Shown in pieces: positions 5,159 to 58,285 of a stretch of DNA of 64,000 nucleotides. Each line of letters starts with the position of its first letter. Within the stretch, counting starts at the first letter, position 1. The stretch comes from Candidatus Krumholzibacteriia bacterium (GTDB taxonomy: Bacteria; Krumholzibacteriota; Krumholzibacteriia; LZORAL124-64-63). A program made the position numbers and the translations under genes. The notes under the pieces were generated by a model. It worked only from the letters and a program-made list of their open reading frames with translations, was not told the DNA's origin and searched no databases. Location: contig JADGDU010000005.1 of the NCBI GenBank assembly GCA_016744705.1, forward strand, positions 3,762 through 67,761. The letters run 5' to 3'.

Positions 5159-5264
5159 ATCTGCCTTTTTGTCAAAAAAACATGGCCTCCCCAAAGGGAG
5201 GTCTGTCATTTTGGCACCTCTGTCAGCCCTAACTCAGATATCCCATAATTTCCACGGTTTTCCC

Positions 5265-5292
5265 TTGCGAGCCTCGTGGGGTGGCGTATATT
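5265..5292 (+). promoter_or_regulatory. Sigma70-like promoter for groES-groEL (-35 TTGCGA, 16-nt spacer, -10 TATATT).
   Basis: The hexamers were read directly. The CIRCE operator lies just downstream, which is the classical arrangement. Confidence 0.4.
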
Positions 5293-5301
5293 GCCAAACG
5301 A

Positions 5302-5328
5302 TTAGCAATCGACAAGCGAGACTGCTAA
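5302..5328 (+). promoter_or_regulatory. CIRCE operator (HrcA binding site): TTAGCAATC-N9-GACTGCTAA.
   Basis: The 9-N9-9 inverted repeat is TTAGCAATC gacaagcga GACTGCTAA. It matches the CIRCE consensus TTAGCACTC-N9-GAGTGCTAA at 16 of 18 positions and sits 65 nt upstream of the groES start. Confidence 0.8.
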
Positions 5329-5393
5329 CGTGGTTTCGATTTCATAACGGCTGGGCTAAAAGTCTGGCCTGAACTAAAGGATGGAGAAATACC

Positions 5394-27697: not shown

Positions 27698-29980
27698 TTG
27701 AATCTGGCCCAACTTCTACAACAGTTAAAAACTGAAGAGAAATTCACAAGGCATGTGACCCGTTGGCAAACGCTTCCTCCCGAGCCGGCCATCTCTGCTG
27801 CGTACCCCGAAAGCCTGGACCAGAGGCTGGTGGATGTGATGCGCGGCCGGGGTATCGAAGAACTTTACAGCCATCAGGCTGAAGCGGTTCAGTTGGCTGC
27901 AGGCGGACACTCTTTTGTGGTTCCTACACCCACCGCCAGTGGTAAAACCCTCTGCTATAATCTCCCGGTTCTGAACACCATCCTGAACGATCCCCAGGCT
28001 CGGGCCTTATACCTTTTCCCCACCAAAGCCCTGAGCCAGGATCAGATGCATGAAGTGCACGGCATCGTCGGCGATCTGGGTGTGGATATCAAAACGTTCA
28101 CCTTCGATGGCGACACTCCCGAAACGGCCCGCCGAGCCATCCGCAGCAGTGGGCATATCGTGGTGACAAATCCAGATATGTTACACCAGGGAATCCTGCC
28201 CCATCATACTTTATGGGTGAAACTTTTTGAGAACCTCAAGTACGTGGTGGTGGATGAGGTGCATCAGTACCGGGGTGTTTTTGGTAGCCACGTGTCTAAT
28301 GTGCTGCGGCGTTTGCGCCGGGTGGCTCAATTCTATGGTGCGGACCCCCAATTTATCTGCTGCTCCGCCACCATTGCCAACCCCAAGGAATTGGCCGGCC
28401 GCCTGACGGGCTTACCCATGGAGGAAATTTCCCGCAATGGTGCGCCCAGAGGTGAAAAACACTTCATCTTTTACAACCCGCCTGTGGTCAATCAGGAATT
28501 GGGAATTCGGCAATCGGTGATCAAAACCACACGCCGTATTTCTGAGCGTTTCATGTCCAGCGGCACCCAATTGATTGTTTTTGCCCGCAGCCGCATGCGA
28601 GTGGAGCTGTTGCTCACCTACCTGGAAAAAGCCGGCCGTCGTGTGGGCATTAAAAGCGGCGAAGTTCGAGGTTACCGTGGAGGGTATTTGCCGGGTGAGC
28701 GCAGGGCCATTGAACAGGGTTTGCGGGACGGTACTGTTTCCACCGTGGTCTCTACCAACGCCCTGGAGTTGGGTATTGATATCGGGCGGCTGGATGTGTG
28801 CGTCATGGCCGGTTACGCCGGCACCGTGGCCAGCACCTGGAAGCAGGCCGGTCGGGCCGGTCGGCGGCAAAATCTCAGTGCCGTGGTTCTGGTGGCATCC
28901 AGTAGTCCTGCCGATCAATATATCATCAACAACCCAGACTATTTTTTCGGCCGCTCCCCAGAACACGCCACCCTTGATCCGGACAACCTTATCATTCTCA
29001 TCAGCCATCTCAAATGTGCTGCTTTTGAATTGCCTTTCACCACGGATGAAAGGTATGGCGATCAAAAAATTGAGGAGATCCTCGATTACCTGACAGAACA
29101 GGGTGTGCTGCACCGTAGTGGGGGGCGGTACCACTGGATGGCCGACACTTACCCCGCCGAGGAAGTTAGCTTGCGTAGCGCCGCTCCTGATAATGTGGTG
29201 ATCATCGATCAAAGCGTTCCCGGTGGCCGAATCATTGGTGAGATGGATCTTTTCAGCGCCCAGGAAATGCTCCATGACGATGCCGTCTACATGCACGGGG
29301 CCCAGCAATACCATGTCGATCGTTTGGACTGGGACCGGCGGGAAGCCCATGTGCAGCCGGTGCAGGTTGACTACTACACCGACGCCCAGCGCAAATCTGA
29401 ACTCAAAACTCTGACGGCTGAAGAAACTTTACCCTTCACCATGGGCCAATTATTGGTGGGCGAAGTGGGGTTGGTGGCCAAGGTCACTGTTTATAAGAAA
29501 ATCAAACTGGGGACCCACGAAAATGTGGGAGCAGGGCGGGTGCATTTGCCGGAAATGGAAATGCACACCGTTAGTTTCTGGTGGGAATTGCCCGAGAATG
29601 TGGCCGAAGATCTCACCGCTGAAGGGTTTGATCTGGGTGACGGGTTGAAAGGTTTGTCCCACTTGCTGGGCAGAGTGGCTCCGGTTTTCATCATGGCCGA
29701 TCCTTCAGACTTGCATGCCCTGGCCATGGTGCGCTCGCCTTTCACCGGGAGTCCTACCCTGTATATCTACGATGCTTTCCCCGGTGGGGTTGGGTATGCC
29801 CGGCGCATCCATCAGCAGTTTGCAGAAATCTGCCAATCGGCTCAGGACCATTTGCATGCCTGCCCCTGTGAAAGGGGTTGTCCTTCCTGTGTTGGCCCCG
29901 CCACCGAAAGCGGAGATACGGCCCGCCAGGCCGCTGCCTGGATATTAGCCAGAGCGTGTAGCCCATCTGCCGAGGGTTGA
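27698..29980 (+). CDS. mrfA: MrfA-like DEXH-box DNA helicase with a C-terminal DUF1998 Zn-ribbon.
   Basis: It has motif I (VPTPTASGKT), motif II (DEVH) and motif VI (QAGRAGRR). The C-terminal four-Cys cluster is …CPCERGCPSCVGP…. Confidence 0.8.
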   Translation: MNLAQLLQQLKTEEKFTRHVTRWQTLPPEPAISAAYPESLDQRLVDVMRGRGIEELYSHQAEAVQLAAGGHSFVVPTPTASGKTLCYNLPVLNTILNDPQARALYLFPTKALSQDQMHEVHGIVGDLGVDIKTFTFDGDTPETARRAIRSSGHIVVTNPDMLHQGILPHHTLWVKLFENLKYVVVDEVHQYRGVFGSHVSNVLRRLRRVAQFYGADPQFICCSATIANPKELAGRLTGLPMEEISRNGAPRGEKHFIFYNPPVVNQELGIRQSVIKTTRRISERFMSSGTQLIVFARSRMRVELLLTYLEKAGRRVGIKSGEVRGYRGGYLPGERRAIEQGLRDGTVSTVVSTNALELGIDIGRLDVCVMAGYAGTVASTWKQAGRAGRRQNLSAVVLVASSSPADQYIINNPDYFFGRSPEHATLDPDNLIILISHLKCAAFELPFTTDERYGDQKIEEILDYLTEQGVLHRSGGRYHWMADTYPAEEVSLRSAAPDNVVIIDQSVPGGRIIGEMDLFSAQEMLHDDAVYMHGAQQYHVDRLDWDRREAHVQPVQVDYYTDAQRKSELKTLTAEETLPFTMGQLLVGEVGLVAKVTVYKKIKLGTHENVGAGRVHLPEMEMHTVSFWWELPENVAEDLTAEGFDLGDGLKGLSHLLGRVAPVFIMADPSDLHALAMVRSPFTGSPTLYIYDAFPGGVGYARRIHQQFAEICQSAQDHLHACPCERGCPSCVGPATESGDTARQAAAWILARACSPSAEG

Positions 29981-29981
29981 G

Positions 29982-31205
29982 ATGGATTTAAAAAAAAGAC
30001 TGGCCAACATGGACCGTCTCTCCCGCCAGAATGTTGCGCCATCTGCAGGGTCTCGACCTCAGCAGAAAGCCAATGCAACCACCTTAAAAAAATCTTTAAA
30101 TTGCTTGCAGCTTATAAGCTCACAGGGTCAAGAGGAAGAAATTTGGACCAGAGATTATACTGATGATTTTTCTTTGAGTATCACAGAATTACCCTCTTTG
30201 GTTGGCTTTTTCACACGGGCGCATGAAGCTTCACCCGGTTTGGAAGATATTCTTTTCCTGGACACGGAAACCACGGGACTGTCCGGGGGAACCGGTACCA
30301 TTGCTTTTCTGGTGGGGGTGGGCTGGGTCCGGAATAATATATTCCACAGTCGGCAATACTTTCTGCCTGATTTTCATCATGAACACGCCATGTTGAATGA
30401 ACTGGCCTCTCTGGCTCAGAAATTTGAAGTGGTGATGACCTTCAATGGCGCCTCTTTTGATTTGCCTCTTTTGCGCACGCGGGCTTTGATGAACAGGCTG
30501 AAAGATCCCTGCGCGGACTTGGTCAGTTGGGATTTGCTTGTGCCGGGACGCCGCTTGTGGGGACGCATTTTTCCCAATTGCAAACAGCAAACCCTTGAAA
30601 AAGGACTGCTACAAATGAGCCGCGATTCCCGGGATATTGAGGGTGCCCTGATTCCCCAGACCTGGTTCGACTTCCTGCAAACAGCAGAGCCGGATTTGAT
30701 GGGAAGAGTTTTGCATCATAACCAGCGCGACTTGCTGGGGATGGCGGGGATTTTTGCACAGGTTCTGGACAAGGCCCAGTGTCTGCATGATAATATACCA
30801 CAGGAAACGCCCTGGAAAGAGGCCTGGTCCCTGGGGCGTATTGCCGAAATTGCCCGGATCCAGGAGCAAGCAGCCACCTGGATACAATGTGCGGCTCTGG
30901 CCAACGGAAAAGACTCTGAATGTCGGTTTCTGGAAGCCCGTTTTGTGGCCGATGCAATCCGACTTTTGAAACGACAGGGCCATTGGGATGATGTGGAAAT
31001 GATCATCAAAAAAGCATTGGTGGCGGGTCAGGATGAGCCGTGGTTACACCGGGAAGCGGCGATTCTTTATGAACACAGAAGAGCCCATTTATCTAAAGCC
31101 CTGCTTCATGCCCGTCAGTGCCAGGAGCCTGGGCGTATTTTGCGTCTGGAAAAGAAAATCCTAAAAATTCAAGAGGTTAAAAATGGCCCTACCGACACGC
31201 ACTGA
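29982..31205 (+). CDS. mrfB: MrfB/YprB-like RNase-H-fold exonuclease with C-terminal TPR-like repeats.
   Basis: …ILFLDTETTGLSGGTGTIAFLVGVGW…MTFNGASFDLPLL… shows the DEDD-like acidic residues of a PolB-like exonuclease domain. The C-terminal half is helical repeats. The gene starts 2 nt after mrfA. Confidence 0.65.
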   Translation: MDLKKRLANMDRLSRQNVAPSAGSRPQQKANATTLKKSLNCLQLISSQGQEEEIWTRDYTDDFSLSITELPSLVGFFTRAHEASPGLEDILFLDTETTGLSGGTGTIAFLVGVGWVRNNIFHSRQYFLPDFHHEHAMLNELASLAQKFEVVMTFNGASFDLPLLRTRALMNRLKDPCADLVSWDLLVPGRRLWGRIFPNCKQQTLEKGLLQMSRDSRDIEGALIPQTWFDFLQTAEPDLMGRVLHHNQRDLLGMAGIFAQVLDKAQCLHDNIPQETPWKEAWSLGRIAEIARIQEQAATWIQCAALANGKDSECRFLEARFVADAIRLLKRQGHWDDVEMIIKKALVAGQDEPWLHREAAILYEHRRAHLSKALLHARQCQEPGRILRLEKKILKIQEVKNGPTDTH

Positions 31206-42800: not shown

Positions 42801-43205
42801 TACTTTTGTGAGGGAATATTACAAAAATTTAATAAACATCATTATGGCAAAATAACATAATATTGTGATGTAGGCCAGCGTTTCTTCGAGTTAAGACGTG
42901 AATTTGAGGCATTGAACTTTTTGTATGTTTGTGGTATAGTCATCTTTCGTATCCATTAGAAATCTCTGTGGGGGCGCCAATTGGCGAAAGAGGGCTTTTC
43001 TACGTATGCTTTCCCTTGTTTGATTCACGGAATATTGGATCCGTCAGAATTCTTAAGGGTTCCTGCGTTCCGGATTCGGTCCTGGGTCTGATTTTGGGGC
43101 CATTTAGACTGTAACAAAAACCTGAAGTTCATTCATAATACAATAATATGCCAACAGTAAACCTGGATCCTTTTCGAGGTGGTTCTGTTTCCATGGAGGA
43201 ATTGC

Positions 43206-46200
43206 ATGTCCGCATTTGGAATTAGCTCACGGTTGAAGCTTCCTTTGGCTTTTTTGGTCGTTTTGTTTGTGACCAATGTCGCTGGCTTCTCTAGCGCAAG
43301 ATCTGAAACAGTGATTTACGAGGGTGGTTTTGCACCTGATCTCTGGTCATGGGAGTATACCCCTGAAGGAGCCATCTACCCTTCTTTGGAGGGGCACCGA
43401 CAACTTTTGGAGCCGGGGCTGCCTATGGTTCCCGTACAGGACCTTGTCCTTCTGATTCCAGCTGGGTTGGACGTGGCCGAGGCTTGGGTTGAGCCGCTGT
43501 CCACCAGAACCGAAAAATTTTCGGATACACCCGCCCTTTCCCCTCCTCATATCACCGATACAGGGGAGATGATCTCCACTAGAAGGATGCAGCCTAGCGA
43601 AGGTGCCTTCCCTGCGGTCTGGGGAGAATTTTCCGGGACCCATACCTGGCGGGGATACAATCTTTTAACCCTGAGTGTTTATCCCGCTCAAATTGAAAAT
43701 CAGACGATCACGTTCCTGGACCAATACGCCGTGCAGGTCGTTTATGCTGATGGCCAACGCCAACGGTTGACCCTGGAACGCGAAAGATTTGTGGATGGGG
43801 AAGTCGCTTCCAATCAGGAAGTTCTTCGTGCTGTTGTGTCCAATACTCAGGCTCTGTCTGGCTACGCCCGTATCAATGGGGCCGTTGTTACAGAAGACAA
43901 GGGACAGTTCGTGCCTACGCGCACACCCAGCCTCAGTGGCAGTGCAGTGCAGTATCTCATCGTCACCAATGAGGACATGGCCCCTGAATTTCAGCGTCTG
44001 GCTGACTACAAAACCCGCCTCGGTATGCAAACTCTGGTGGTGACAAGGGAATACATTGCGGCCAATTTCCGTAACGGAGCCGACATTCAGGAAACCATCC
44101 GCATGTTCATCCAGGATGCTTATGCCAAGTGGGGTACTGAATATGTACTTCTGGGTGGGGATACCGATATCATTCCTCCCCGTTATGTGAACAATACTTT
44201 TTATCCAGCCACCAGTTTTACGGAAATTCCAGTGGACATGTATTTTGCCTGTCTGGATGGCAACTGGAACGCCAATGGCAATGCCCTCTTTGGTGAAGCT
44301 CTGTCCTCCACTGTGGAGGCGGATGATGTAGATTTCGCCGAAGAAGTTTATCTGGGGCGGGCCACCGTAAGTAACAGCACAGCAGCTCAGGTATTTGTGG
44401 ATAAAGTGATTTCCTATGAGACGACGCCTCAAGGATCTCAATGGCCCAACCGTATTCTCTATGCGGCGGAAGTGCTCTTTCCCTCATCCTATGAAGAGGG
44501 CATGAACATCATTCTGGATGGTGCTCAGTTCTCCGACCAGATGGTCAACGATTTGGTTGAGCCATGTACGGATATGGAATATGTCCGCATGCATGAGACC
44601 GATTCCCTCTTTCCCCGGGAAGAGGGTTTGACCCGTAGCGCTTTGATCGACAGTCTGAATACTGGGCACTATGGTATTTTTAACCAGATCGGCCATGGCT
44701 TTTATTTCAATATGTCCGTGGGAAATGAAAATTTCATGAACACGGATGCTGATGCCCTTGTCAATGGCGACCACCTCTTTGTGCTGTTCTCTCTGAACTG
44801 CGCGTCCGCCGCCTTTGATTACAGTTGCCTCATGGAACGTTTTCTGCAAAACCCTAATGGGGGATCCATCCTTTCCATTGGCTCTTCCCGGGCAGCATTT
44901 CCCAACAGCTCCAACAATTACCAACAGGGCTTCTTTGAGGCTCTGTATTGCACGGATGAAAACCGCAGTGGCAAACTCGTGGCCATCAGCCGGTTGCCTT
45001 ATCTTGGTAACACCGTATACAACTACGTTGATCGTTGGACCTTTGAAAATTACACACTTCTTGGTGATCCGACCTTGCCCATCTGGACAGGTGTTCCCCA
45101 GGGCCTTGGTGTGAGCTCATCGGATATGACTCTGGGACCTAACCAACTCAATTTGGTTGTTTCTGAAGGCGGCCAGCCTGCTCGCAATGCTCAGGTTTGT
45201 CTGTCACGGGATGGAGAAGATTTTGCTACTGGGCTGACTAATTTATCCGGTGCCGTCACCTTGGATTACCTGGCCAATATTGAAGGGGCCGTGGATCTGA
45301 GGGTTTCCGGAGTCAATTTGGCACAATTCCAGTCCACCGTGAATGTATTAGACGGAACATCCTATTTGGACCTGTCTTTTGTGGCCGTTACGGACAATGG
45401 ATCCAGTGGCTCTGCGGGTAATGGCAACACCGAAATTGAATCCGGAGAAGTGGTTAATCTCTCACCGATATTGCGTGAAACTGGAGGGGCTGGCCTTTCC
45501 AACCTAACTGGTATCTTGAGCACGACCAACCCCTTGGTAGATGTGTCTTCCAATGCGGCAAATTTTGCAAATGTTAGCGGTGGAGGCCTCACCGGCCCTC
45601 TGACGCCTTTTGTTGTTTCAGTGGACCCGGATATGGTTGATGGAACCCCGGTGACTTTCCAATTGATGCTGACAGATTCTCATGATGAATCTTTTGATGT
45701 TCAATGGACCACGGTGGTGAAAGCTCCCATGTTGGAAGTGGTCAGAATGGATTGGGAAGACGATACCTTTGGTAATGGAGATGGCTTCCTGGGCAACGGT
45801 GAAAGGGTCGTGCTGACCGTTGAAGTTAAAAACTTCGGAGCAGGGCAAGCAGACAATGCTGATCTTCGCATGCGTTCTTACAATGCCAATGTCTCTCTTT
45901 TTGATACCGTGGGAACCGTGGGCAGTCTTGAACTCATGGAAACTTCCGGAGATGTGAGCACGTTTTCTCTGGCTTTAAATGATGCCAGCCGGAAATCCCA
46001 AAGCTTCATATCCATCATTGATAATTACGGACGCTCGAGCCAGCATGCCTTCGTTTTGCAGCGGCCCGAAACACCCATGAATATTGAAACCGACACCAGT
46101 CTTGGCTCCGATGTTATTGCCTTGAACTGGGACCCTCTGGAAGCCGACGAATTGTTTGGGTATAACATTTTCCGAAGCCTTAGTCCGGACGGGCCTTTTG

Positions 46201-48041
46201 AACAAGTGAATCAGGATGTTGTGTTTGGCACTTCCTATTTCCGCAATGAAGGATTGTCCCAACTCACTAAGTATTATTACCAGGTTTGCAGTGTAGGTGA
46301 ATCTCTGGTTCCCAGTTCCGTCTCTGTGGTGGTGGAACAGGCGACGGCACCAGCGGAAGCCATCGGTTTCCCCGTGACCTTTATCAATGAAACCAGTGGC
46401 AGTCTGGCTGTGGGTGACGTTGATGGTGATGGCGATTATGAAGTTGTTTTGGGTAGTGATGAGCTCTATGTGTGGCATCATGATGGCACCGAATTATTTG
46501 ACGGTGATAACGATAGCCAAACCCTGGGGCCTGTGACCAATAACAATAGTAATGTGAGTCCTGCGGGCATCGCATTGGCTCAATTGGACGGACTTCCCGG
46601 GTTGGAAATGATTTACTGTGACCGCAGTAATCCCGAGTTGGTCAACGTGCTGGATCAGGCGGGGAACCCTCTTCCTGGATGGCCTCAAACCACCAACGGT
46701 GGATCGGGCACCCAGTGGGTGTGGGCCAGTCCTGCGGTTGGCGATATTGATGGCGACGGAGATTTGGAAGTAATCATCAATTCTCTCAATGGTCGCACCT
46801 GGGCCTGGCACCATGACGGGACTGAAGTGCGTGACGGGGATAACAATCCTGACACTAATGGACTGTTCATGATCCGCCCCGGCGCCCATGGAGAATGGGG
46901 GCTCAGTTCCCCTGTGTTATACGATCTGGACGATGATGGCGCCGATGATATCATCTTTGGAACCGGGGCCGATGATACGGGTGGCAACAAACTTGTGGCT
47001 TACAAAGTGGATGGAACAGATGTTCCCGGCTTCCCTTACTTTTCCGATAGCCGTATCAACAACAGTGCTGCCGTCGGCGATCTCAACAACGATGGCATGG
47101 TGGAAATTGTCTTTTATGACAGCACCGGACATCTTTATGCCGTCCAGCAGGACGGCACCGATTATCCCGGATTCCCTGCGGATTACGGATTCGGTACCAG
47201 AAGTGGTGGCTTGCCCAGCGTGGCCTTGGGTGACATGGATGAAGATGGTGAATTGGAAATCATCTTTGCCGGAAATGTTGATGGTGACTTGAGTAAGTTG
47301 GTCATCGTGGACACCGATGTTAATGGCGGCACCAGTGGGCTATCTCTGAATGGTTGGCCCATTGATTTGCCCGGTAGCTCCGAAGGCAGTCCCGTGGTGG
47401 GCGACATTGATGGAGACGCTGTTCCCGATATCATCTTCGGTATTGGTGGAGGCTCCGAAGATGCTCCCAACAACCTTTATGCCTTTAAAGCCAATGGCCA
47501 ATCCATTGATGGTTTTCCCATCACCTTGACTGGTCCCATCATGCCCACACCCGTGATCTGTGACCTGGATGGCGATCTGGATGTGGATATCATTCTCGGT
47601 GCCTGGGATCGTGAAGTTCATGTTTGGGATATGCCATTTGCTTTCGACCAGCGCCATTGCCCATGGCCCACGTACCAGGGCAATATGCAGCGGGACGGGG
47701 TCCTGATTTCTGTAGATCTGGTGGGCGTGGATGATGTCGCTGACCTTCCTGCGGCCACCTTCAAGGTGGAGGCTCCATACCCGAATCCATTCAACCCTTC
47801 CACCAGCATTCGGCTTCATGTGCCTGTGGTGAAGGGGGCCTCTAGTCTGGAACTAAATGTGTATGACCTGCAGGGCCGAAAGGTACGCACATTGCATAAT
47901 GGTCCCATCTCTTCCGGTTGGCATACCATGATCTGGGATGGACAGGACAACTCAGGACGGAATCAATCCAGTGGCATGTATTTCATGCGGGCCCGTAGTG
48001 GAGGCAGTTCGTCCATTCACAAAATGACTCTGGTGAAATAA
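43206..48041 (+). CDS. Giant secreted gingipain-like (peptidase C25) protein with a seven-blade FG-GAP/integrin-like repeat region and a T9SS C-terminal sorting domain.
   Basis: The ATG at 43206 follows GGAGGA-5nt. The tracked ORF begins at an upstream GTG. A signal peptide is present. The C25-like His and Cys regions are …IGHGFYFN… and …LNCASAAFDY…. Seven (V/L)GD(V/I)DGDGD…E(V/I)(V/I) repeats lie in 46411..47600. The C-terminus …PYPNPFNPSTSIRLH…LNVYDLQGRKVRTL…GMYFMRA…KMTLVK is paralogous to the CTD of the 5..4480 protein. Confidence 0.8.
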   Translation: MSAFGISSRLKLPLAFLVVLFVTNVAGFSSARSETVIYEGGFAPDLWSWEYTPEGAIYPSLEGHRQLLEPGLPMVPVQDLVLLIPAGLDVAEAWVEPLSTRTEKFSDTPALSPPHITDTGEMISTRRMQPSEGAFPAVWGEFSGTHTWRGYNLLTLSVYPAQIENQTITFLDQYAVQVVYADGQRQRLTLERERFVDGEVASNQEVLRAVVSNTQALSGYARINGAVVTEDKGQFVPTRTPSLSGSAVQYLIVTNEDMAPEFQRLADYKTRLGMQTLVVTREYIAANFRNGADIQETIRMFIQDAYAKWGTEYVLLGGDTDIIPPRYVNNTFYPATSFTEIPVDMYFACLDGNWNANGNALFGEALSSTVEADDVDFAEEVYLGRATVSNSTAAQVFVDKVISYETTPQGSQWPNRILYAAEVLFPSSYEEGMNIILDGAQFSDQMVNDLVEPCTDMEYVRMHETDSLFPREEGLTRSALIDSLNTGHYGIFNQIGHGFYFNMSVGNENFMNTDADALVNGDHLFVLFSLNCASAAFDYSCLMERFLQNPNGGSILSIGSSRAAFPNSSNNYQQGFFEALYCTDENRSGKLVAISRLPYLGNTVYNYVDRWTFENYTLLGDPTLPIWTGVPQGLGVSSSDMTLGPNQLNLVVSEGGQPARNAQVCLSRDGEDFATGLTNLSGAVTLDYLANIEGAVDLRVSGVNLAQFQSTVNVLDGTSYLDLSFVAVTDNGSSGSAGNGNTEIESGEVVNLSPILRETGGAGLSNLTGILSTTNPLVDVSSNAANFANVSGGGLTGPLTPFVVSVDPDMVDGTPVTFQLMLTDSHDESFDVQWTTVVKAPMLEVVRMDWEDDTFGNGDGFLGNGERVVLTVEVKNFGAGQADNADLRMRSYNANVSLFDTVGTVGSLELMETSGDVSTFSLALNDASRKSQSFISIIDNYGRSSQHAFVLQRPETPMNIETDTSLGSDVIALNWDPLEADELFGYNIFRSLSPDGPFEQVNQDVVFGTSYFRNEGLSQLTKYYYQVCSVGESLVPSSVSVVVEQATAPAEAIGFPVTFINETSGSLAVGDVDGDGDYEVVLGSDELYVWHHDGTELFDGDNDSQTLGPVTNNNSNVSPAGIALAQLDGLPGLEMIYCDRSNPELVNVLDQAGNPLPGWPQTTNGGSGTQWVWASPAVGDIDGDGDLEVIINSLNGRTWAWHHDGTEVRDGDNNPDTNGLFMIRPGAHGEWGLSSPVLYDLDDDGADDIIFGTGADDTGGNKLVAYKVDGTDVPGFPYFSDSRINNSAAVGDLNNDGMVEIVFYDSTGHLYAVQQDGTDYPGFPADYGFGTRSGGLPSVALGDMDEDGELEIIFAGNVDGDLSKLVIVDTDVNGGTSGLSLNGWPIDLPGSSEGSPVVGDIDGDAVPDIIFGIGGGSEDAPNNLYAFKANGQSIDGFPITLTGPIMPTPVICDLDGDLDVDIILGAWDREVHVWDMPFAFDQRHCPWPTYQGNMQRDGVLISVDLVGVDDVADLPAATFKVEAPYPNPFNPSTSIRLHVPVVKGASSLELNVYDLQGRKVRTLHNGPISSGWHTMIWDGQDNSGRNQSSGMYFMRARSGGSSSIHKMTLVK

Positions 48042-51584: not shown

Positions 51585-52112
51585 ATGCCCAGCTCTCAAA
51601 AAGATTTTCTTACCAATCTCACCGCCAAAGAGATGAAAAGACTGTTGGTGGCTCGCGAGCGCATCGATGTCTTGATGGCTGAAAAAGGGAAACTGACCAC
51701 CGCCCTGGATAAAATTGATGATGAATTGTCCAGGCTGATGAATGACGCCCAGGGGACGCCCGCCAAGGCTCCGGACCGTGCGGTCAAAAAGAGCAGTGGT
51801 AAGAAAAAAGTGGCGGCCAGAAAAGCTGTAAAAAAGAAGGTTGCTGCAAAAAAAGTAACAAAGAAAAAGGTTACTAAAAAAGCTAAGTCCTCCGCTGCTA
51901 AATCTGGGGGGCGGGTCAAACTTGAAGATGTTGTGGTGAGCCTTATTAAAGCCAACCGCAAACCCATGACCTATAAGGAACTGATCGGTATCATTGTGGA
52001 GAAGAAACTCTTCACATCCAAGAGCAGTAATTTCGATAATGTTTTGCGTAGAACCCTGTCCACCAGCAAACTCGTGAAACGGGTCGGGCGCGGAGTCTAT
52101 TCAGTAGCCTGA
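51585..52112 (+). CDS. Histone H1-like lysine-rich nucleoid protein with a C-terminal winged-helix (HARE-HTH-like) domain.
   Basis: The central region has AKK/VKK repeats (…KKVAARKAVKKKVAAKKVTKKKVTKKAK…). The C-terminus, …VKLEDVVVSLIKANRKPMTYKELIGIIVEKKL…, looks like a HARE-type HTH. Confidence 0.55.
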   Translation: MPSSQKDFLTNLTAKEMKRLLVARERIDVLMAEKGKLTTALDKIDDELSRLMNDAQGTPAKAPDRAVKKSSGKKKVAARKAVKKKVAAKKVTKKKVTKKAKSSAAKSGGRVKLEDVVVSLIKANRKPMTYKELIGIIVEKKLFTSKSSNFDNVLRRTLSTSKLVKRVGRGVYSVA

Positions 52113-52587: not shown

Positions 52588-53529
52588 ATGATGCCTGAGT
52601 CACCGCGGATTCTGGTGATCGGATACAATGCTTTTGACATCACTGTGCCTGTGGACCGTTTTCCCGTCCCAGATTCCAAAGCCGAAGTTCCCTTTGTCAA
52701 ATTGGGTGGAGGAGGCCCCGGAGCTACGGCTGCGGTGGCCATGTCCCGGTTGGGGGCCAAGGTTCAGTTGGTTACTCCGCTGACTCAGGATGCCGGTGGT
52801 TTGATCCAGCGTGATGAATTGATGGCCGCCGGTGTTGACCTCACTGGTAGTGTCGTTTTCCCCGAATATGCGTGCGCCAAGGCCGTGATTCTTGTTCAAC
52901 CTGCCACCGGTGAGCGAACCATTTTCTGGTCCCGGGGGGACTTGCCTCTTCTGGATGCGGCCTCCTGGGAGTCCCAATGGTTGGACGGAGTGGACTTGCT
53001 TTATCTTGATGGGCACGAACCGGACCTCAGTATGGTGGCCGCTCGGGAGGCTCGCGCCAGAGGGGTGCCCGTGGTTCTGGATGCCGGATCGGTGCGCTCA
53101 GGGAGCGAGGAGTTGGTGGCGCTATGCACTGACGTCATCTCCTCATCGGTTTTTGCACTGCAATTGGCAGGGTCTGAAGATCCTCTGGAGGCCTTGACCG
53201 AACTCCGCAAACGGGGCCCCAAGAATGTGGCCATGACCTTTGGGGCTGAAGGGGTCTTGGCCCTGGCTGAAGAGCCTTTTGCTATTCCAGCCTTCGAGGT
53301 TGAGGTTTGTGATACCACTGGGGCGGGCGATGTTTTTCATGCCGGGTATGCCTTTTCTCTGGCCTGTGGGGGGCAGTTCGAGTATAACCTCACATTTGGT
53401 GCTGCGGTGGCTGCGCTCAAATGTGCTCACTGGGGTGGCCGGGGTGGTTTGCCTCTTTTGGCTGATGTTCAGGAAATCCTTCGGTCTGGTCAGACCCTTC
53501 CTCTTTCTGCCCGATTCCATCTTTCTTAA
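52588..53529 (+). CDS. PfkB-family carbohydrate kinase (ribokinase-like).
   Basis: It has an N-terminal GG motif and the C-terminal anion-hole motif DTTGAGDVF. Confidence 0.8.
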   Translation: MMPESPRILVIGYNAFDITVPVDRFPVPDSKAEVPFVKLGGGGPGATAAVAMSRLGAKVQLVTPLTQDAGGLIQRDELMAAGVDLTGSVVFPEYACAKAVILVQPATGERTIFWSRGDLPLLDAASWESQWLDGVDLLYLDGHEPDLSMVAAREARARGVPVVLDAGSVRSGSEELVALCTDVISSSVFALQLAGSEDPLEALTELRKRGPKNVAMTFGAEGVLALAEEPFAIPAFEVEVCDTTGAGDVFHAGYAFSLACGGQFEYNLTFGAAVAALKCAHWGGRGGLPLLADVQEILRSGQTLPLSARFHLS

Positions 53530-53625
53530 AATTTCTCATGATTTTGTTGTTTTTTCGCTGGACTTTCGTCTTGGTTTCGCCTAGGTTGGGCCTACTATTA
53601 CCCGTTTACCTATGGGGAGGAAATC

Positions 53626-54234
53626 ATGGGACTCACGCGCCGACAGGCTGAAATTCTTGCATACATCACTCAATTTACGGAAGTCGAGGGTTTTGCACCC
53701 ACACTACAGGAAGTGGGTGAAAAGTTTGGCCTCTCATCGGTTGCCACGGTGCACAAGCACATCAGCAATCTGGTGGAGAAAGGGTATCTTCTGCGTTCCC
53801 GCCGCAATTCCAGCCGAGATTTGGAAGTGGTCAGCCAACATTCAGAAGAACCCAGCCTTGTGCGCATTCCCCTGCTGGGTACCGTCGCGGCCGGCTTGCC
53901 CGTGGAAGCCCTTGACGAGCACGAAGAGATCATTTTGCCCACGGAGTGGCTGGGGCGTGGCCGCACGTTTGCTTTGCGAGTCCGCGGCGATTCCATGATT
54001 GATGAACAGATTCGCGATGGGGATACAGTGGTGGTTGAGTCCCGAGAAATGGCTCGCAATGGAGAAACCGTCATTGCCCTGGTGGATGGGGATTCCGTCA
54101 CCGTCAAACAGTACTACCGTGAAGGGCCCAGCATTCGCCTGCAACCCGCCAACCCCACTGTGCCGGTGCTTGTTTTGCCTGAAGAGCGTGTCCAGGTGCA
54201 GGGTGTTGTCATTGGCGTCCTACGACGTTTCTAG
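53626..54234 (+). CDS. lexA: SOS repressor LexA.
   Basis: It has an N-terminal winged HTH, a cleavage-site region (…VAAGLP…) and the S24 peptidase Ser-Lys dyad region (…RVRGDSM…TVKQY…). Confidence 0.9.
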   Translation: MGLTRRQAEILAYITQFTEVEGFAPTLQEVGEKFGLSSVATVHKHISNLVEKGYLLRSRRNSSRDLEVVSQHSEEPSLVRIPLLGTVAAGLPVEALDEHEEIILPTEWLGRGRTFALRVRGDSMIDEQIRDGDTVVVESREMARNGETVIALVDGDSVTVKQYYREGPSIRLQPANPTVPVLVLPEERVQVQGVVIGVLRRF

Positions 54235-54236
54235 GT

Positions 54237-55277
54237 TTGGAGACCGGAGCAGAAAATCCGGTCCCGGGGCAGGCTGAAAATGCTTCTTGTCTGATTTTAC
54301 ACCTACGGCTGTGCGCTCCTGGAGGGGCGGTGCCTAATCCACAAGGTGATATCCTGCGGCGGGAATTCTATTCTCGCATCACCCCCGCCTGGGAAGTGAT
54401 ACCCGATGGTGTTCTCTTGGATCTGCGGGGGATGCAGCGGCTTCATGGACCGGGGGCTAATGGGGCGGAGAGCATATGCGCCTTGGCCCTAAGGGAGTTC
54501 CCCATTTGGTCTGCTGGCCTGGCTTCCTCACCTCTGGCCGCGCAGTTAGCCTCGTTGATGGGTGGGATGGGGAAAGGGCAAAAACTCTTTTCAGTACCCC
54601 GGGGGGCTGTGCCATCTTTTTTAGCTGGTTTTTCCATTAATGTATTGTCCCACCATTCCCGTGAGGTTCCCCGGTTGCATGCTTTAGGAGTCCACACCCT
54701 AGGGGATTTGCAGGTTCTACCCAAAAACTTGTTGTCGGCTGTTTTTGGTACCGTTGGGGATCAGTTGGCTCTGGATGCCTGGGGAATTCCTTCCGGAAAT
54801 CTGGGCACCAACGATTCCGGACCTCAATCTTTAACTGTGGCGGCCGTTCGTTTTGCGAAGCCGCTTGTTTCCCATGGGGGAGAAAAGGCATTGCGGAGGG
54901 CCTTGGCCATGAGGGCTTTGTGCAAAGTTTCGGCTCCTGGCCGCTGGTCTCTGTCGGTCTGCTGGTCCAGCGGGGCCAGTTCCACAGTGGAGATTTCAGG
55001 CCCCAGAGGAGAATCCTGGCCGGCTTGGTTGGTCCTGTTGGACGACCTGTGGGCGAAACTTCCTGCGCACCGGCAGGGCATTCGCCAGATCCGGTTGCTT
55101 TTTCGTGGCACTGATGATTCCTTTTCGTCCCAACTGAGTCTGTTCGAAAAATCGGGGGATGCCCAGGCTTTGGGTTTGGCCATGTTCCAAATCAGCCAGA
55201 AATTTGAGTCTTCTTTGGCTCCGGCCAGTGAGGCGCTGTTGGAAAAATGGGGTGCCCGTTGGGCAAAAAATCCCTGA
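54237..55277 (+). CDS. Catalytically degenerate Y-family DNA polymerase homolog (DinB-like / ImuB-like).
   Basis: Alignment by eye to E. coli DinB shows the following. HVDMD aligns with HLRLC, so both catalytic Asp are lost. SLDEAYLDV aligns with IPDGVLLDL, so Glu104 becomes Gly. SAGVAP aligns with SAGLAS. The HhH region GDVQ…LLKRFGKFG aligns with GDLQ…LLSAVFGTVG. The gene starts 3 nt after the lexA stop. Confidence 0.6.
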   Translation: METGAENPVPGQAENASCLILHLRLCAPGGAVPNPQGDILRREFYSRITPAWEVIPDGVLLDLRGMQRLHGPGANGAESICALALREFPIWSAGLASSPLAAQLASLMGGMGKGQKLFSVPRGAVPSFLAGFSINVLSHHSREVPRLHALGVHTLGDLQVLPKNLLSAVFGTVGDQLALDAWGIPSGNLGTNDSGPQSLTVAAVRFAKPLVSHGGEKALRRALAMRALCKVSAPGRWSLSVCWSSGASSTVEISGPRGESWPAWLVLLDDLWAKLPAHRQGIRQIRLLFRGTDDSFSSQLSLFEKSGDAQALGLAMFQISQKFESSLAPASEALLEKWGARWAKNP

Positions 55278-55316: not shown

Positions 55317-55345
55317 TTGACGCTTATGGCCAAGGCGGGTAGCAT
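55317..55345 (+). promoter_or_regulatory. Possible sigma70-like promoter upstream of hsp20 (-35 TTGACG, 17 nt, -10 TAGCAT).
   Basis: The hexamers were read directly. The -10 is weak. Confidence 0.3.
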
Positions 55346-55395
55346 ACTAGGATCTTGTGTATTACCGTTCAGACTGCAGCTGGGGAGAAGCGCGA

Positions 55396-55830
55396 ATGGG
55401 AAAGAAAGCCCGGTCCGGGCAATTGGATGAAATTTTCGAAATTCTCGTTGCTTCGTATGCTCAAAAAGGCGGAGTTGTTCCCCCTGAGGGAGAGCTTTGT
55501 TGGCATCCGGCCACTGATGCGTATGAAACCAATGAGTCCTTTGTGGTCCAAATGGATCTTGCGGGGATGGACCCCAGTCGGATAGAAGTTTTGGCCGACC
55601 AGCACAGCCTGTTGGTCCGTGGCATTCGGCCAGAGGCGCCCGCTGAGGGCAAGAAGCATTACCATAAGATGGAAATTAGCATTGGTCCTTTTTCCCGACG
55701 TGTTCCCATCTCGGTGGATGTTGATCCCAACAGCGCTGTGGCTATATATCGGAACGGTTTCCTTGTGGTCACTTTTCAAAGAGGCGACACGGGCGAAGGA
55801 CAGAAACGCAGCATCAGCATTAATGGCTGA
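55396..55830 (+). CDS. Small heat-shock protein, Hsp20/alpha-crystallin family.
   Basis: It has an alpha-crystallin domain (…PATDAYETNESFVVQMDLAGMDPSRIEV…). I placed the start at the internal ATG at 55396. Confidence 0.85.
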   Translation: MGKKARSGQLDEIFEILVASYAQKGGVVPPEGELCWHPATDAYETNESFVVQMDLAGMDPSRIEVLADQHSLLVRGIRPEAPAEGKKHYHKMEISIGPFSRRVPISVDVDPNSAVAIYRNGFLVVTFQRGDTGEGQKRSISING

Positions 55831-55894: not shown

Positions 55895-58285
55895 ATGCCG
55901 GACAATGACCGGAACTTCATGGAAAATGATCAAGTGGAAGAGTTGTATTTGCCGGAAGAGATGCCCATTCTGCCCATCAGTGAGGCAGTCATCTTCCCGG
56001 CTATGATGGTGCCACTGGTTTTGAGCGATACCAACTTGGTACGGCTGGCGGATGATTGTCTGGCTGGCGACAAAATCCTGGGGACTTTTGCCCAAAGGGA
56101 ATTGGTGTCCGACGACGAGGAAGATGTGGATGAAAAAGATCTGATCTACCACGTGGGTACTGCTGTAAAAATCCAGAAGATGTTACGTTTTCCAGATGGA
56201 AGCATCCGCCTGCTGGGGCAAGGTGTGGCCAGGTGCCGTATCAAAAAATTCATTGAGGGCGAACCTTATATGAAGGCCCAGGTGGAGTTGATTGATGAAG
56301 ATGTTCAGGAAGATTCCCGCACCCTGGCCTATATGCGTGGGGTGGCCAATAATTTCCTGAAAATTATTGATACCAGTGAAACTCTTTCAGAAGAGTTGAA
56401 GGTTGTCGTCATGAACATTGACGACCCGGGCCGGTTGGCTGATCTCATCGCCACCAACCTGGACGTGGATGTGGCGGAGAAGCAATCCATGCTGGAGGAA
56501 AAATCCCCGCGCAAGCGCCTGCAAATGCTTTCCAAACTGGTCATGCGCGAATTGGACGTATTAGAGCTGGGGCAAAAACTTCAGACCACTGTGCGCAAGA
56601 GCATCGACAAAGACCAGCGTGAATATTATCTGCGCCAGCAATTGAAAGCCATCCAGCGAGAGCTGGGGGACACTGACGAGGGTTCCGTCGAATTGGACGA
56701 ATTGGCCGAGCGTATCGCCGATGCCGATTTGCCCGAAAAGGTGAAGGCCGCTGCCGAACGGGAATACGACCGTCTGAGCCGGATGTCACCAGGAGCCAGC
56801 GAATACACAGTGAGCAAAACCTATGTCGATTGGCTTTTGGAGCTGCCATGGAACGTCAGCAGTGAAGACAAACTGGATCTGGACCGGGCGCAGGAGATTC
56901 TGGAACGGGACCACTTCGGCCTGGAAGATGTCAAAGAACGCATCATCGAATATCTGGCCGTGCGTAAGCTGAAAGACAACCATCGTGGTCCCATCCTTTG
57001 CCTGGCCGGGCCTCCTGGCGTGGGTAAAACCAGCCTCGGGCGCAGCATTGCTGAAGCAGTGGGAAGAAAGTTCTTCCGTTTCAGTTTGGGTGGTATGCGT
57101 GATGAAGCGGAGATCCGTGGGCATCGCCGCACCTATGTGGGCTCTATGCCTGGGCGCATCATTGCCGGGCTCAAAGAATGCGAAACCAATAATCCTCTGA
57201 TCATGCTCGATGAAATTGATAAATTGGGCAATGATTTCCGAGGTGATCCGGCCAGTGCTTTGCTGGAAGTTTTGGATCCCGAGCAGAACAGTGATTTTAC
57301 GGATCACTATCTGACTCTTCCGTTTGATCTTTCCAAAGTGATGTTCATCACCACGGCTAATATGTTGGACACCATCCCGCGGCCCTTGTTGGACCGCATG
57401 GAGATGATCCACCTGGCTGGTTATACCAACTTGGAAAAACTTCAAATTGCCAAACGATATCTGGCACCACGCCAGATTGAAGAGAACGGATTGACCAACA
57501 AGCATATTCGTTTCACCGATGCGGGATTGATGAGCATCATCGAAGACCACACCCGGGAGGCCGGAGTGCGGCAACTGGAACGGGAAATTGGTGGTGTGTG
57601 CCGTAAGGTTGCTACCGCGGTGGCCAAAGGCAAACGGAAGAAACAAAGTGTTGGTGCCAAAAACCTTGAAGACTACCTCGGACCGCCAAGCTATTCTGGC
57701 GACCGGTTACGCAGTCGTCTGAAGGTTGGGGTTGTCACGGGCTTGGCCTGGACCCAGGTGGGCGGCAAAATCCTTTATATTGAAGGTTTGAATCTGCCAG
57801 GGGGACGTGGGGTTTTGAAACTCACGGGCCAGGTGGGCAGTGTGATGCAAGAATCCGCCAGTGCGGCCTATAGTTATTTGCGCCATCGATTCGGGGCCCG
57901 AGAGGAATACACGGAGTTTTTCACCAAGCGGGATATTCACATCCACTTGCCAGCTGGAGCCACTCCCAAGGATGGCCCCAGTGCAGGTATTGCCATGGCC
58001 TCTGTGCTGCTTTCCCTGATGCTCAAAAAACCTCTTAGCCGGTACACAGCCATGACCGGGGAAATCACACTCACTGGAGCAGTTCTGCCCATTGGTGGAT
58101 TGCTGGAAAAGGTGTTGGCGGCTCACCGTGTGGGGATCAAACAGATTATCATTCCAGCCACCAATGAGACTGACTTGGAAGAAATTCCGGAAGAAGTTCG
58201 TGAGGCCATTAAGTTTGTGCCTGTCAGCCATGTGGACGAAGTCTGGGAGACTATTTTTCCCGAAATTGCTGATGGGACTATCTGA
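55895..58285 (+). CDS. lon: ATP-dependent protease Lon.
   Basis: It has the LON N-domain, an AAA+ Walker A (GPPGVGKTS) and the C-terminal S16 protease with its catalytic Ser region (…PKDGPSAGIAMA…). Confidence 0.95.
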   Translation: MPDNDRNFMENDQVEELYLPEEMPILPISEAVIFPAMMVPLVLSDTNLVRLADDCLAGDKILGTFAQRELVSDDEEDVDEKDLIYHVGTAVKIQKMLRFPDGSIRLLGQGVARCRIKKFIEGEPYMKAQVELIDEDVQEDSRTLAYMRGVANNFLKIIDTSETLSEELKVVVMNIDDPGRLADLIATNLDVDVAEKQSMLEEKSPRKRLQMLSKLVMRELDVLELGQKLQTTVRKSIDKDQREYYLRQQLKAIQRELGDTDEGSVELDELAERIADADLPEKVKAAAEREYDRLSRMSPGASEYTVSKTYVDWLLELPWNVSSEDKLDLDRAQEILERDHFGLEDVKERIIEYLAVRKLKDNHRGPILCLAGPPGVGKTSLGRSIAEAVGRKFFRFSLGGMRDEAEIRGHRRTYVGSMPGRIIAGLKECETNNPLIMLDEIDKLGNDFRGDPASALLEVLDPEQNSDFTDHYLTLPFDLSKVMFITTANMLDTIPRPLLDRMEMIHLAGYTNLEKLQIAKRYLAPRQIEENGLTNKHIRFTDAGLMSIIEDHTREAGVRQLEREIGGVCRKVATAVAKGKRKKQSVGAKNLEDYLGPPSYSGDRLRSRLKVGVVTGLAWTQVGGKILYIEGLNLPGGRGVLKLTGQVGSVMQESASAAYSYLRHRFGAREEYTEFFTKRDIHIHLPAGATPKDGPSAGIAMASVLLSLMLKKPLSRYTAMTGEITLTGAVLPIGGLLEKVLAAHRVGIKQIIIPATNETDLEEIPEEVREAIKFVPVSHVDEVWETIFPEIADGTI

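Follow-up and report, generated by a model that had tools for sequence, protein, structure and literature searches.

Phased TTTCG repeats and a fingerless, inactive Y-family polymerase homologue in a putative LexA-controlled operon of Krumholzibacteriota

Introduction

Inactive Y-family proteins such as ImuB organise mutasomes, and these drive both the mutagenesis that follows DNA damage and the evolution of drug resistance. We analysed a 64,000-nt stretch of DNA (the window) from a Candidatus Krumholzibacteriia bacterium, in which the gene lexA, encoding the SOS repressor, is directly followed by an open reading frame (ORF) for a 346-aa relative of the Y-family DNA polymerases (PolY). The lexA promoter carries phased TTTCG repeats, and the product of the following ORF, the second protein, has lost the fingers and catalytic residues of PolY. 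On balance we favour the view that the two genes form a LexA-repressed SOS operon of Krumholzibacteriota and that the second protein is an ImuB-like adaptor of the beta clamp.

Inactive PolY groups and PolY operons with lexA have been described already (PMC6511836, PMC12926913). Timinskas and Venclovas described inactive PolY (iPolY) groups, namely scDinB2-like, gbDinB2-like and the Kyrpidia type, that belong to DnaE2-iPolY-RecA systems, and 'drastically reduced' ImuBs keep the thumb and the little finger; the described inactive PolY and reduced ImuB cases are all tied to DnaE2 and/or ImuB-C (PMC6511836, PMC12926913). Krumholzibacteriota are mentioned in neither of these two articles. In Geobacter sulfurreducens, lexA, imuB-C and polY are reported as one transcript with autoregulated lexA (Jara et al. 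2003, as cited in PMC6511836). The locus described here resembles that operon in having lexA in one unit with a Y-family gene, as judged from the arrangement of the genes, and differs from it in two ways: the Geobacter PolY is apparently active with a standalone imuB-C in between, whereas here the PolY is dead and imuB-C is absent.

The LexA operator of Alphaproteobacteria, GTTC-N7-GTTC, is a direct repeat. Direct-repeat binding by LexA has been shown experimentally, including in Balneolaeota, a phylum of the Fibrobacteres-Chlorobi-Bacteroidetes (FCB) group (TTACACATATTTTWTACATA; PMC7739468). The TTTCG array upstream of lexA shares with such operators the direct half-sites and the period of about 11 bp; it differs in the half-site (TTTCGY) and in the number of phased copies, up to three or four, and is at this stage a candidate operator.

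LexA and the lexA promoter

The lexA product scores as a canonical repressor with TIGR00498 (177.1 bits, cutoff 110.95), PF01726 LexA_DNA_bind (54 bits) and PF00717 Peptidase_S24 (103 bits). Its translation contains VAAG, GDSM and VTVK; by comparison with E. coli LexA, we take VAAG to be the cleavage site and the Ser of GDSM and the Lys of VK to be the protease dyad. The LexA recognition helix reads SS[V/A/M]ATVHKH in all 15 species compared. It is similar to that of Bacillus subtilis LexA, a lead for the operator rather than a test of it.

Three TTTCG pentamers with an exact 11-nt phase had been reported upstream of lexA in the initial annotation, and the sequence reads accordingly (R1 to R3 in Table 1). 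Within the window this phased triple is found a single time, and none of 100 shuffled sequences contains it. The suggestion that it is a lineage-specific operator or promoter element agrees well with the comparison of 18 distinct Krumholzibacteriota lexA promoters, where the repeats lie in a strongly conserved cis-element overlapping the promoter. The consensus is tTTTt..t.t.TTTTCGCTGGACTTTCGyc....TTTCGycTA...Tg (in short form TTTTCGC-TGGAC-TTTCGY-N5-TTTCGY-CTAnnnT). R2 and R3 are present in 18/18 promoters; the sequence around the block is not conserved, nor is that of the 6 nt separating R2 from R3. Several species have a degenerate fourth repeat 11 bp further upstream. In L015 and L021, from the two species that diverge most, only R2 and R3 are kept, inside the promoter spacer.

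CTGGAC and TAnnnT stand at a fixed spacing in the 18 promoters. From this conservation and geometry we infer a sigma-70-type lexA promoter, in which R2 and R3 fill the spacer between -35 and -10 and R1 abuts the -35 on its upstream side. With four of six matches in each hexamer, this promoter is not reported by a consensus scan. An extracytoplasmic function (ECF) sigma reading of GGAC...CGTCTA was rejected, as its 14-nt spacing is too short and the 17 nt of sigma-70 fit exactly.

The absence of known LexA boxes, also claimed in the initial annotation, was confirmed with 15 LexA-box consensus patterns known from the literature, none of which fits positions 53480-53640. The nearest is GTTC-N7-GTTC, matched with two mismatches as TTTC-N7-TTTC, one G-to-T change per half-site. 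On the other strand the half-site reads CGAAA, against CGAAC in the Gram-positive box, a difference of one base. A match to the cyanobacterial box RGTAC-N3-DGTWCB in the lexA 5' leader (53597-53610, ATTACCCGTTTACC, 2 mismatches) is not conserved in other species and so is probably a chance match. Among the 18 promoters compared, no other conserved block fit as an operator was found between pfkB and lexA.

Conserved sequence inside a promoter spacer has the look of a repressor site, which favours the LexA operator reading. Judging from their conservation, the TTTCG repeats are very probably a functional cis-element, and they are probably, with distinctly less certainty, a LexA operator of the direct-repeat type.

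The repeats could instead be the site of another factor, and here their distribution matters. The window holds 12 matches to TTTCG-N6-TTTCG with at most one mismatch, against 4.5 expected, and outside the lexA promoter all of these are intragenic or on the wrong strand. In sixteen related loci (about 210 kb) exact TTTCG-N6-TTTCG pairs were detected in lexA promoters only, so that neither data set gave a second promoter of this kind. A metagenome scan for TTTCGY-N5-TTTCGY-N5-TTTCGY returned at least 120 matches; among the matches listed, nearly all are 11-bp tandem repeats, one is a further lexA promoter (L121), and a regulon signal is absent. The metagenome contig L096 (reverse strand, ~115-160) contains a look-alike, TTTTCGCCGGACTTTCGCTCAAATTTCGCC, of this promoter block, about 70 nt upstream of a gene that encodes a signal-peptide protein and is not a repair gene; the similarity may be accidental, or the element may serve an unrelated purpose there.

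The restriction to lexA without a regulon link, and the look-alike before an unrelated secreted protein gene, would suit a phased T-tract or UP-like element, or a different direct-repeat factor such as a winged-helix response regulator, with LexA binding elsewhere or lexA not being autoregulated. The phased T-rich tracts also reach upstream of the -35 as the degenerate fourth repeat, and 11-bp direct repeats are the typical layout of OmpR/PhoB-type sites. We consider this explanation rather unlikely, because each T-tract is followed by an invariant CG and because two repeats in the spacer beside the -10 fit a repressor and not curvature or an activator. In addition, the region offers LexA neither a known box nor another conserved operator-like block, characterised SOS systems as a rule have an autoregulated lexA, and the half-site resembles CGAAC.

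In two species the 5' leader of lexA is stretched to 110-200 nt by tandem insertions between the promoter/repeat block and the lexA start. These are short tandem repeats of the GAAATCTAGAAA type and the GATTCAG type in L009 (~5165-5355) and about four copies of ACGGTTGTCGACACTGAA in L017 (~5265-5385).

The second gene and its start

The adjacency of lexA and the dead PolY gene is fixed lineage-wide, and the pair was seen in every locus examined. The TTG that begins the 346-aa ORF is the furthest upstream start possible in the window. In the public gene call, P0001, the protein has 315 aa and begins at an internal GTG (54330), a start that would remove the conserved beta1 strand ILHLR. LHLR lies upstream of this GTG and is kept in 16/17 species, with its codon 28-121 nt past the lexA stop, and this favours the longer ORF. 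A strong Shine-Dalgarno-like GGAGG stands 4 nt ahead of the in-frame GTG (54315-54332); it is either a chance match inside a variable linker or a second initiation site. The finding as a whole corrects the public annotation of this gene.

Depending on the species, candidate starts of the second gene are found at -46 to +85 nt, counted from the lexA stop. A consensus scan of the window detected no promoter between the two genes and only weak terminator-like hairpins with 5-bp stems at the junction. Co-transcription and translational coupling of lexA and the second gene appear likely from this arrangement.

The second protein is a fingerless, inactive PolY

The best sequence match of the second protein among solved structures is E. 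coli DinB (phmmer against PDB, E 8e-5). General domain models score it poorly: the best NCBIfam DNA polymerase IV (Pol IV) model gives 28.3 bits against cutoffs of 256-381, and Pfam IMS gives 12.4 bits against 23.2, beside a weak IMS_HHH_1 match. An AlphaFold2 (AF2) model built on 40 family sequences has a predicted local distance difference test (pLDDT) score of 85.3, with beta1, palm, thumb helices and little finger visible. In a Foldseek search of PDB its best matches are E. coli DinB-DNA complexes (4r8u, E 5.5e-13, template modelling score 0.53, root-mean-square deviation 5 A), and the 271 aligned columns correspond to the length of DinB minus the fingers. The model thus predicts a Y-family fold with palm, thumb and little finger.

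To examine the active site, we aligned the family by MAFFT to E. coli DinB, whose sequence had been compared with the PDB alignment, and to two proteins each of the canonical Pol IV and the inactive PolY type. The register proposed by the initial annotation, ILHLR on IIHVDMD and PDGVL on LDEAY, was recovered by phmmer, hhalign and this alignment, and the catalytic triad was not restored by aligning the protein with DinB and ImuB. H22 is invariant, R24 stands at the position of the catalytic Asp8, C26 at that of Asp10, and G58, invariant or nearly so across the family, at that of Glu104. The claim that the catalytic residues were lost therefore holds for these three, but an aspartate, D57, is still found at the Asp103 position; it is kept in the window protein and variable across the family. 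As read from these substitutions, the second protein is predicted to be catalytically dead and unable to polymerise.

The fold is also shortened. The initial annotation had aligned the ORF with DinB along its whole length, which does not hold for the fingers: DinB residues 11 to about 80-82, some 70 aa, have no counterpart, and in their place the family has a variable linker 10-25 aa long. Position 34 of the family profile falls at about residue 84 in ordinary PolY proteins. The thumb, said to be kept together with the helix-hairpin-helix (HhH) motif, is indeed the best-conserved part of the protein, with the block LGVRTLGDLQ, but the PGVG hairpin of the HhH is gone in the family alignment. 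Beyond the little finger only ~45 residues follow, which agrees with the reported lack of a long ImuB C-terminal extension; an ImuB-C domain would take about 100-150 aa. The DinB-like size of 346 aa is coincidental, made up of an 18-aa N-terminal extension, the loss of ~70 aa and the tail of ~45 aa.

Directly after the little finger the protein carries QLSLF, in which Q299 shows no variation, and L302 and F303 little or none, in 25- and 40-sequence alignments. The motif lies in a segment of low model confidence (residues 295-301, pLDDT <50) and is matched in alignments by QLELF and QMRLF in other PolY proteins. QxxLF is the clamp-binding consensus of PolY proteins (PMC12926913), and QLSLF is accordingly a predicted beta-clamp-binding motif.

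The AF2 model gives the tail behind this motif two helices (308-322 and 330-336) and, at 340-342, a strand; within it L335 and W342 vary little or not at all. The first helix aligns with a segment of P0114, an inactive PolY, for which DUF4113 (RecA-NT) scores a weak match, and it takes the place at which the RecA-NT/DUF4113 motif would start. The last part, LLxxWGxxW (aa 333-343), aligns by hhalign, over a short length, with VLTPWGERS of an actinobacterial ImuB (P0189), which lies just past the RecA-NT region where ImuB-C begins; it could be the remnant of a shared interaction segment. Four relatives (P0009, P0014, P0015 and P0026) have an extra C-terminal tail past WGxxW with the motif GRGLVD or G(I/L)VD, which is absent from the window protein and may be a further linear interaction motif.

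Comparison with ImuB, iPolY and DinB

We compared the family profile with PolY and ImuB proteins by hhalign. The inactive PolY P0114 aligned with 99.0% probability over 267 columns and the ImuB proteins P0188 and P0189 with 97.9% and 97.5% over 273 and 284 columns, in each case across palm, thumb, little finger and clamp motif; the active Pol IV P0047 aligned with 98.5% over 143 columns. The best matches are proteins of the iPolY kind, P0114 and P0043 (99% probability).

Like the second protein, ImuB has a Y-family core without catalytic carboxylates, a clamp motif directly after the little finger and a link to LexA. Unlike it, ImuB has an ImuB-C domain and imuA/dnaE2 next to its gene; the second protein, in turn, has its fingers deleted and an apparently degenerate RecA-NT motif and belongs to a separate sequence family (at least 165 bits within the family, at most 111 outside). 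The hhalign overlap with ImuB stops at LLxxWG. The initial annotation had described the protein as an ImuB-type inactive scaffold. The dead Y-family fold stands, but since ImuB-C is missing and imuA and dnaE2 are not beside the gene, we do not file the protein as ImuB. It is ImuB-like in logic and outside the ImuB family.

The iPolY groups share with the second protein a dead active site, the lack of ImuB-C, a position nearer to the PolY core than that of ImuB and, often, lexA in the operon. They differ in that they keep the fingers and have dnaE2 and/or imuB-C adjacent, whereas the second protein has lost the fingers, has no such neighbour and has a C-terminal motif of its own. E. coli DinB (Pol IV; 4r8u, 4ir1) has the same palm, thumb, little finger and C-terminal clamp motif; compared with it the second protein is without Asp8, Glu104, the fingers and the PGVG hairpin, and is no polymerase. 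The family is thus a fingerless variant of the known inactive PolY/ImuB-like scaffolds and not a new kind of system.

The proposed operon and its possible function

We propose that LexA would bind direct TTTCG(Y) half-sites 11 bp apart in its own promoter. With two half-sites in the -35/-10 spacer and one or two flanking the -35, the bound repressor would exclude RNA polymerase. Upon DNA damage, RecA-stimulated self-cleavage of LexA would allow transcription of lexA and the coupled gene. The dead PolY would then dock on the beta clamp through QxxLF as a damage-induced adaptor, and its thumb and C-terminal tail would bring in a partner that is not locally encoded, i.e., RecA and/or a C-family polymerase, for example a DnaE2 encoded elsewhere in the genome. 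The result would be a reduced mutasome scaffold.

Besides the confinement of the repeats to lexA promoters, several observations on the protein and its surroundings weigh against this account. The absence of imuA and dnaE2, noted in the initial annotation, holds for the whole window, which has no ORF of either type, and neither these two genes nor imuB-C were found in the window or across ~20 syntenic loci. In published models ImuB-C, the domain absent here, is the main contact of DnaE2 and ImuA. The clamp motif is short, and the loss of the fingers and of the GxG hairpin may mean weaker DNA binding. Finally, the RecA-NT motif appears degenerate: DUF4113 gave no match to the second protein in a Pfam scan, and hhalign of the tail to the RecA N-terminus gave a probability of 0.2%, not significant.

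The missing partner genes, together with the missing ImuB-C domain, leave room for a different function, in which the dead PolY works alone as a damage-induced brake or gatekeeper that sits on the clamp by way of QxxLF, perhaps also on the primer terminus or RecA, and slows or remodels the replisome without recruiting a mutagenic polymerase. The clamp motif is the best-conserved linear motif of the protein, and E. coli Pol IV and UmuDC slow replication when overproduced. We regard this function as unlikely: the thumb and the C-terminal tail are strongly conserved, which suggests a specific protein partner, such a partner may be encoded elsewhere in the genome, and the inactive PolY groups described so far are all linked to DnaE2 (PMC12926913). 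A further-reaching version would have the SOS core of Krumholzibacteriota consist of LexA on three or four phased TTTCG repeats, as a new operator type, and of the fingerless dead PolY, the sole effector co-transcribed with lexA, which would need no partner polymerase as a damage-induced checkpoint or gatekeeper binding the beta clamp and RecA. This version is speculative and improbable in our view; if true, it would mean that a polymerase fold has been fully repurposed as a regulator.

The clamp adaptor that we favour is of interest for the minimal requirements of such scaffolds. The family shows a scaffold that is conserved despite the loss of the fingers, of ImuB-C and of a neighbouring polymerase gene, which suggests that thumb, little finger, clamp motif and short tail are the minimal functional core. 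The repeats provide a candidate LexA operator for a whole uncultured phylum, with which the SOS regulon could be mapped by simple genome scans, and potentially a further case of a LexA switch to direct-repeat recognition.

Family extent and selection

A profile search of 1.8 billion representative proteins detected about 32 family clusters at 50% identity, with E <1e-43 and the bit scores given above. Clustering at 90% gave 46 clusters; none has a Pfam domain, and the named ones are called 'hypothetical protein' save for one generic Joint Genome Institute (JGI) label, so that the annotation proposed here is new information for all of them. The relatives come from metagenome-assembled genomes only, mostly labelled Candidatus Krumholzibacteriota, Krumholzibacteriia or 'bacterium'; the few under other taxon labels are probably binning or naming errors, and the family as detected is confined to Krumholzibacteriota. 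A LexA homologue search meant to reach sister phyla returned at least 120 matches; among the matches listed, all are at least 73% identical and the named ones are all in-phylum.

Between species the second protein is 34-60% identical and LexA 64-96%. In the one unsaturated pair (92% identical orthologues) the ratio of nonsynonymous to synonymous substitution rates (dN/dS) is 0.30 for the second protein versus 0.10 for lexA; four further pairs gave about 0.16-0.34, rough values with dS at or near saturation. The values for lexA range over 0.03-0.10. These ratios indicate purifying selection on the second gene. A functionless, decaying dinB or imuB remnant, as which one might read a fast-evolving 'hypothetical' gene without Pfam domain, fingers, catalytic residues and HhH hairpin, is highly improbable given this ratio of 0.30, the reading frame intact in all species examined, the 23-33 invariant positions shared by the ~46 clusters (W52, W264, W342 and Q299 among them) and the confident AF2 model.

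Table 1. Positions of the promoter elements, genes and protein segments of the putative lexA operon in the window
Feature	Position	Strand	Description
TTTCG direct-repeat array	53542..53579	+	11-bp period; candidate LexA operator; R2 and R3 are the conserved core
Repeat R0	53542-53546	+	TTTTG, degenerate
Repeat R1	53553-53557	+	TTTCG
Repeat R2	53564-53568	+	TTTCG
Repeat R3	53575-53579	+	TTTCG
Putative sigma-70-type lexA promoter	53559..53587	+	-35 TGGACT 53559-53564, 17-bp spacer, -10 TAGGTT 53582-53587
Shine-Dalgarno GGAGG	53616..53620	+	5 nt before the lexA ATG; GGAGG or GGAGA at the same place in other loci
lexA	53626..54234	+	canonical LexA repressor, 202 aa; winged helix-turn-helix and S24 protease
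Fingerless inactive Y-family homologue ('iPolY')	54237..55277	+	346 aa from TTG, 2 nt past the lexA stop
Palm strand beta1 ILHLR (aa 20-24)	54294..54308	+	corresponds to DinB IIHVD; strand in both AF2 models
D57-G58	54405..54410	+	at DinB Asp103-Glu104 (phmmer, hhalign, family alignments)
Thumb (aa 122-182)	54600..54782	+	block RL..LGVRTLGDLQ..P..LL.AVFG; AF2 helices
Little finger (aa 198-291)	54828..55109	+	beta-alpha-beta-beta-alpha-beta; AF2 pLDDT ~90; hhalign to P0114, P0188, P0189
QLSLF (aa 299-303)	55131..55145	+	matches the QxxLF beta-clamp consensus; in a disordered linker
C-terminal tail	55158..55262	+	helix aa 308-322, then ASExLLxxWGxxW (aa 330-342)

Genomic neighbourhood and other observations

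The gene order is syntenic in all loci examined: SBP_bac_5, a hypothetical gene, a lysine-rich winged-helix gene, HIT (- strand), PfkB, lexA, the second ORF, hsp20, lon and several GT9 glycosyltransferases. The whole neighbourhood is vertically inherited, and the lexA-ORF loci are therefore not independent reinventions of the pairing. A 10-kb extension of the window added only cell-envelope genes on one side.

In every species the lexA gene pair is followed by the heat-shock genes hsp20 and lon, which lie at 55357-55830 and 55895-58285 in the window. A sigma-70-like promoter (55317-55345, + strand; TTGACG, 17 nt, TAGCAT) was detected ahead of hsp20, in the gap behind the dead PolY gene. No + strand terminator was detected after 55277, so that transcription from the lexA promoter may read through this point.

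A gene at 51585-52112 (+ strand), located three genes before lexA and conserved there in synteny, encodes a 175-aa protein with lysine-rich KKKVAAKK repeats and a C-terminal domain resembling a winged helix or HARE-HTH (helix-turn-helix) domain by weak Pfam matches. It may be a histone-like or nucleoid protein.

A gene pair resembling mrfA/mrfB (yprA/yprB) is located at 27698-31205 (+ strand). The first gene encodes a 760-aa DEAD/Helicase_C helicase with a C-terminal MrfA Zn-binding domain, and the second, directly behind it, a 407-aa protein with an RNase_H_2 (PF13482) domain. The pair is a candidate mitomycin-type repair module, and upstream of it no TTTCG repeat pair was found.

Two very large Peptidase_C25 (gingipain-like) proteins are encoded at 5-4480 (+ strand, 1491 aa) and 43179-48041 (+ strand, 1620 aa). 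Both have C-terminal FlgD-Ig domains, to which the first adds a Por_Secre_tail sorting domain and the second FG-GAP repeats, a domain make-up that suggests type IX secretion cargo. The second of them is found in the conserved neighbourhood of other species as well (L144 and L145).

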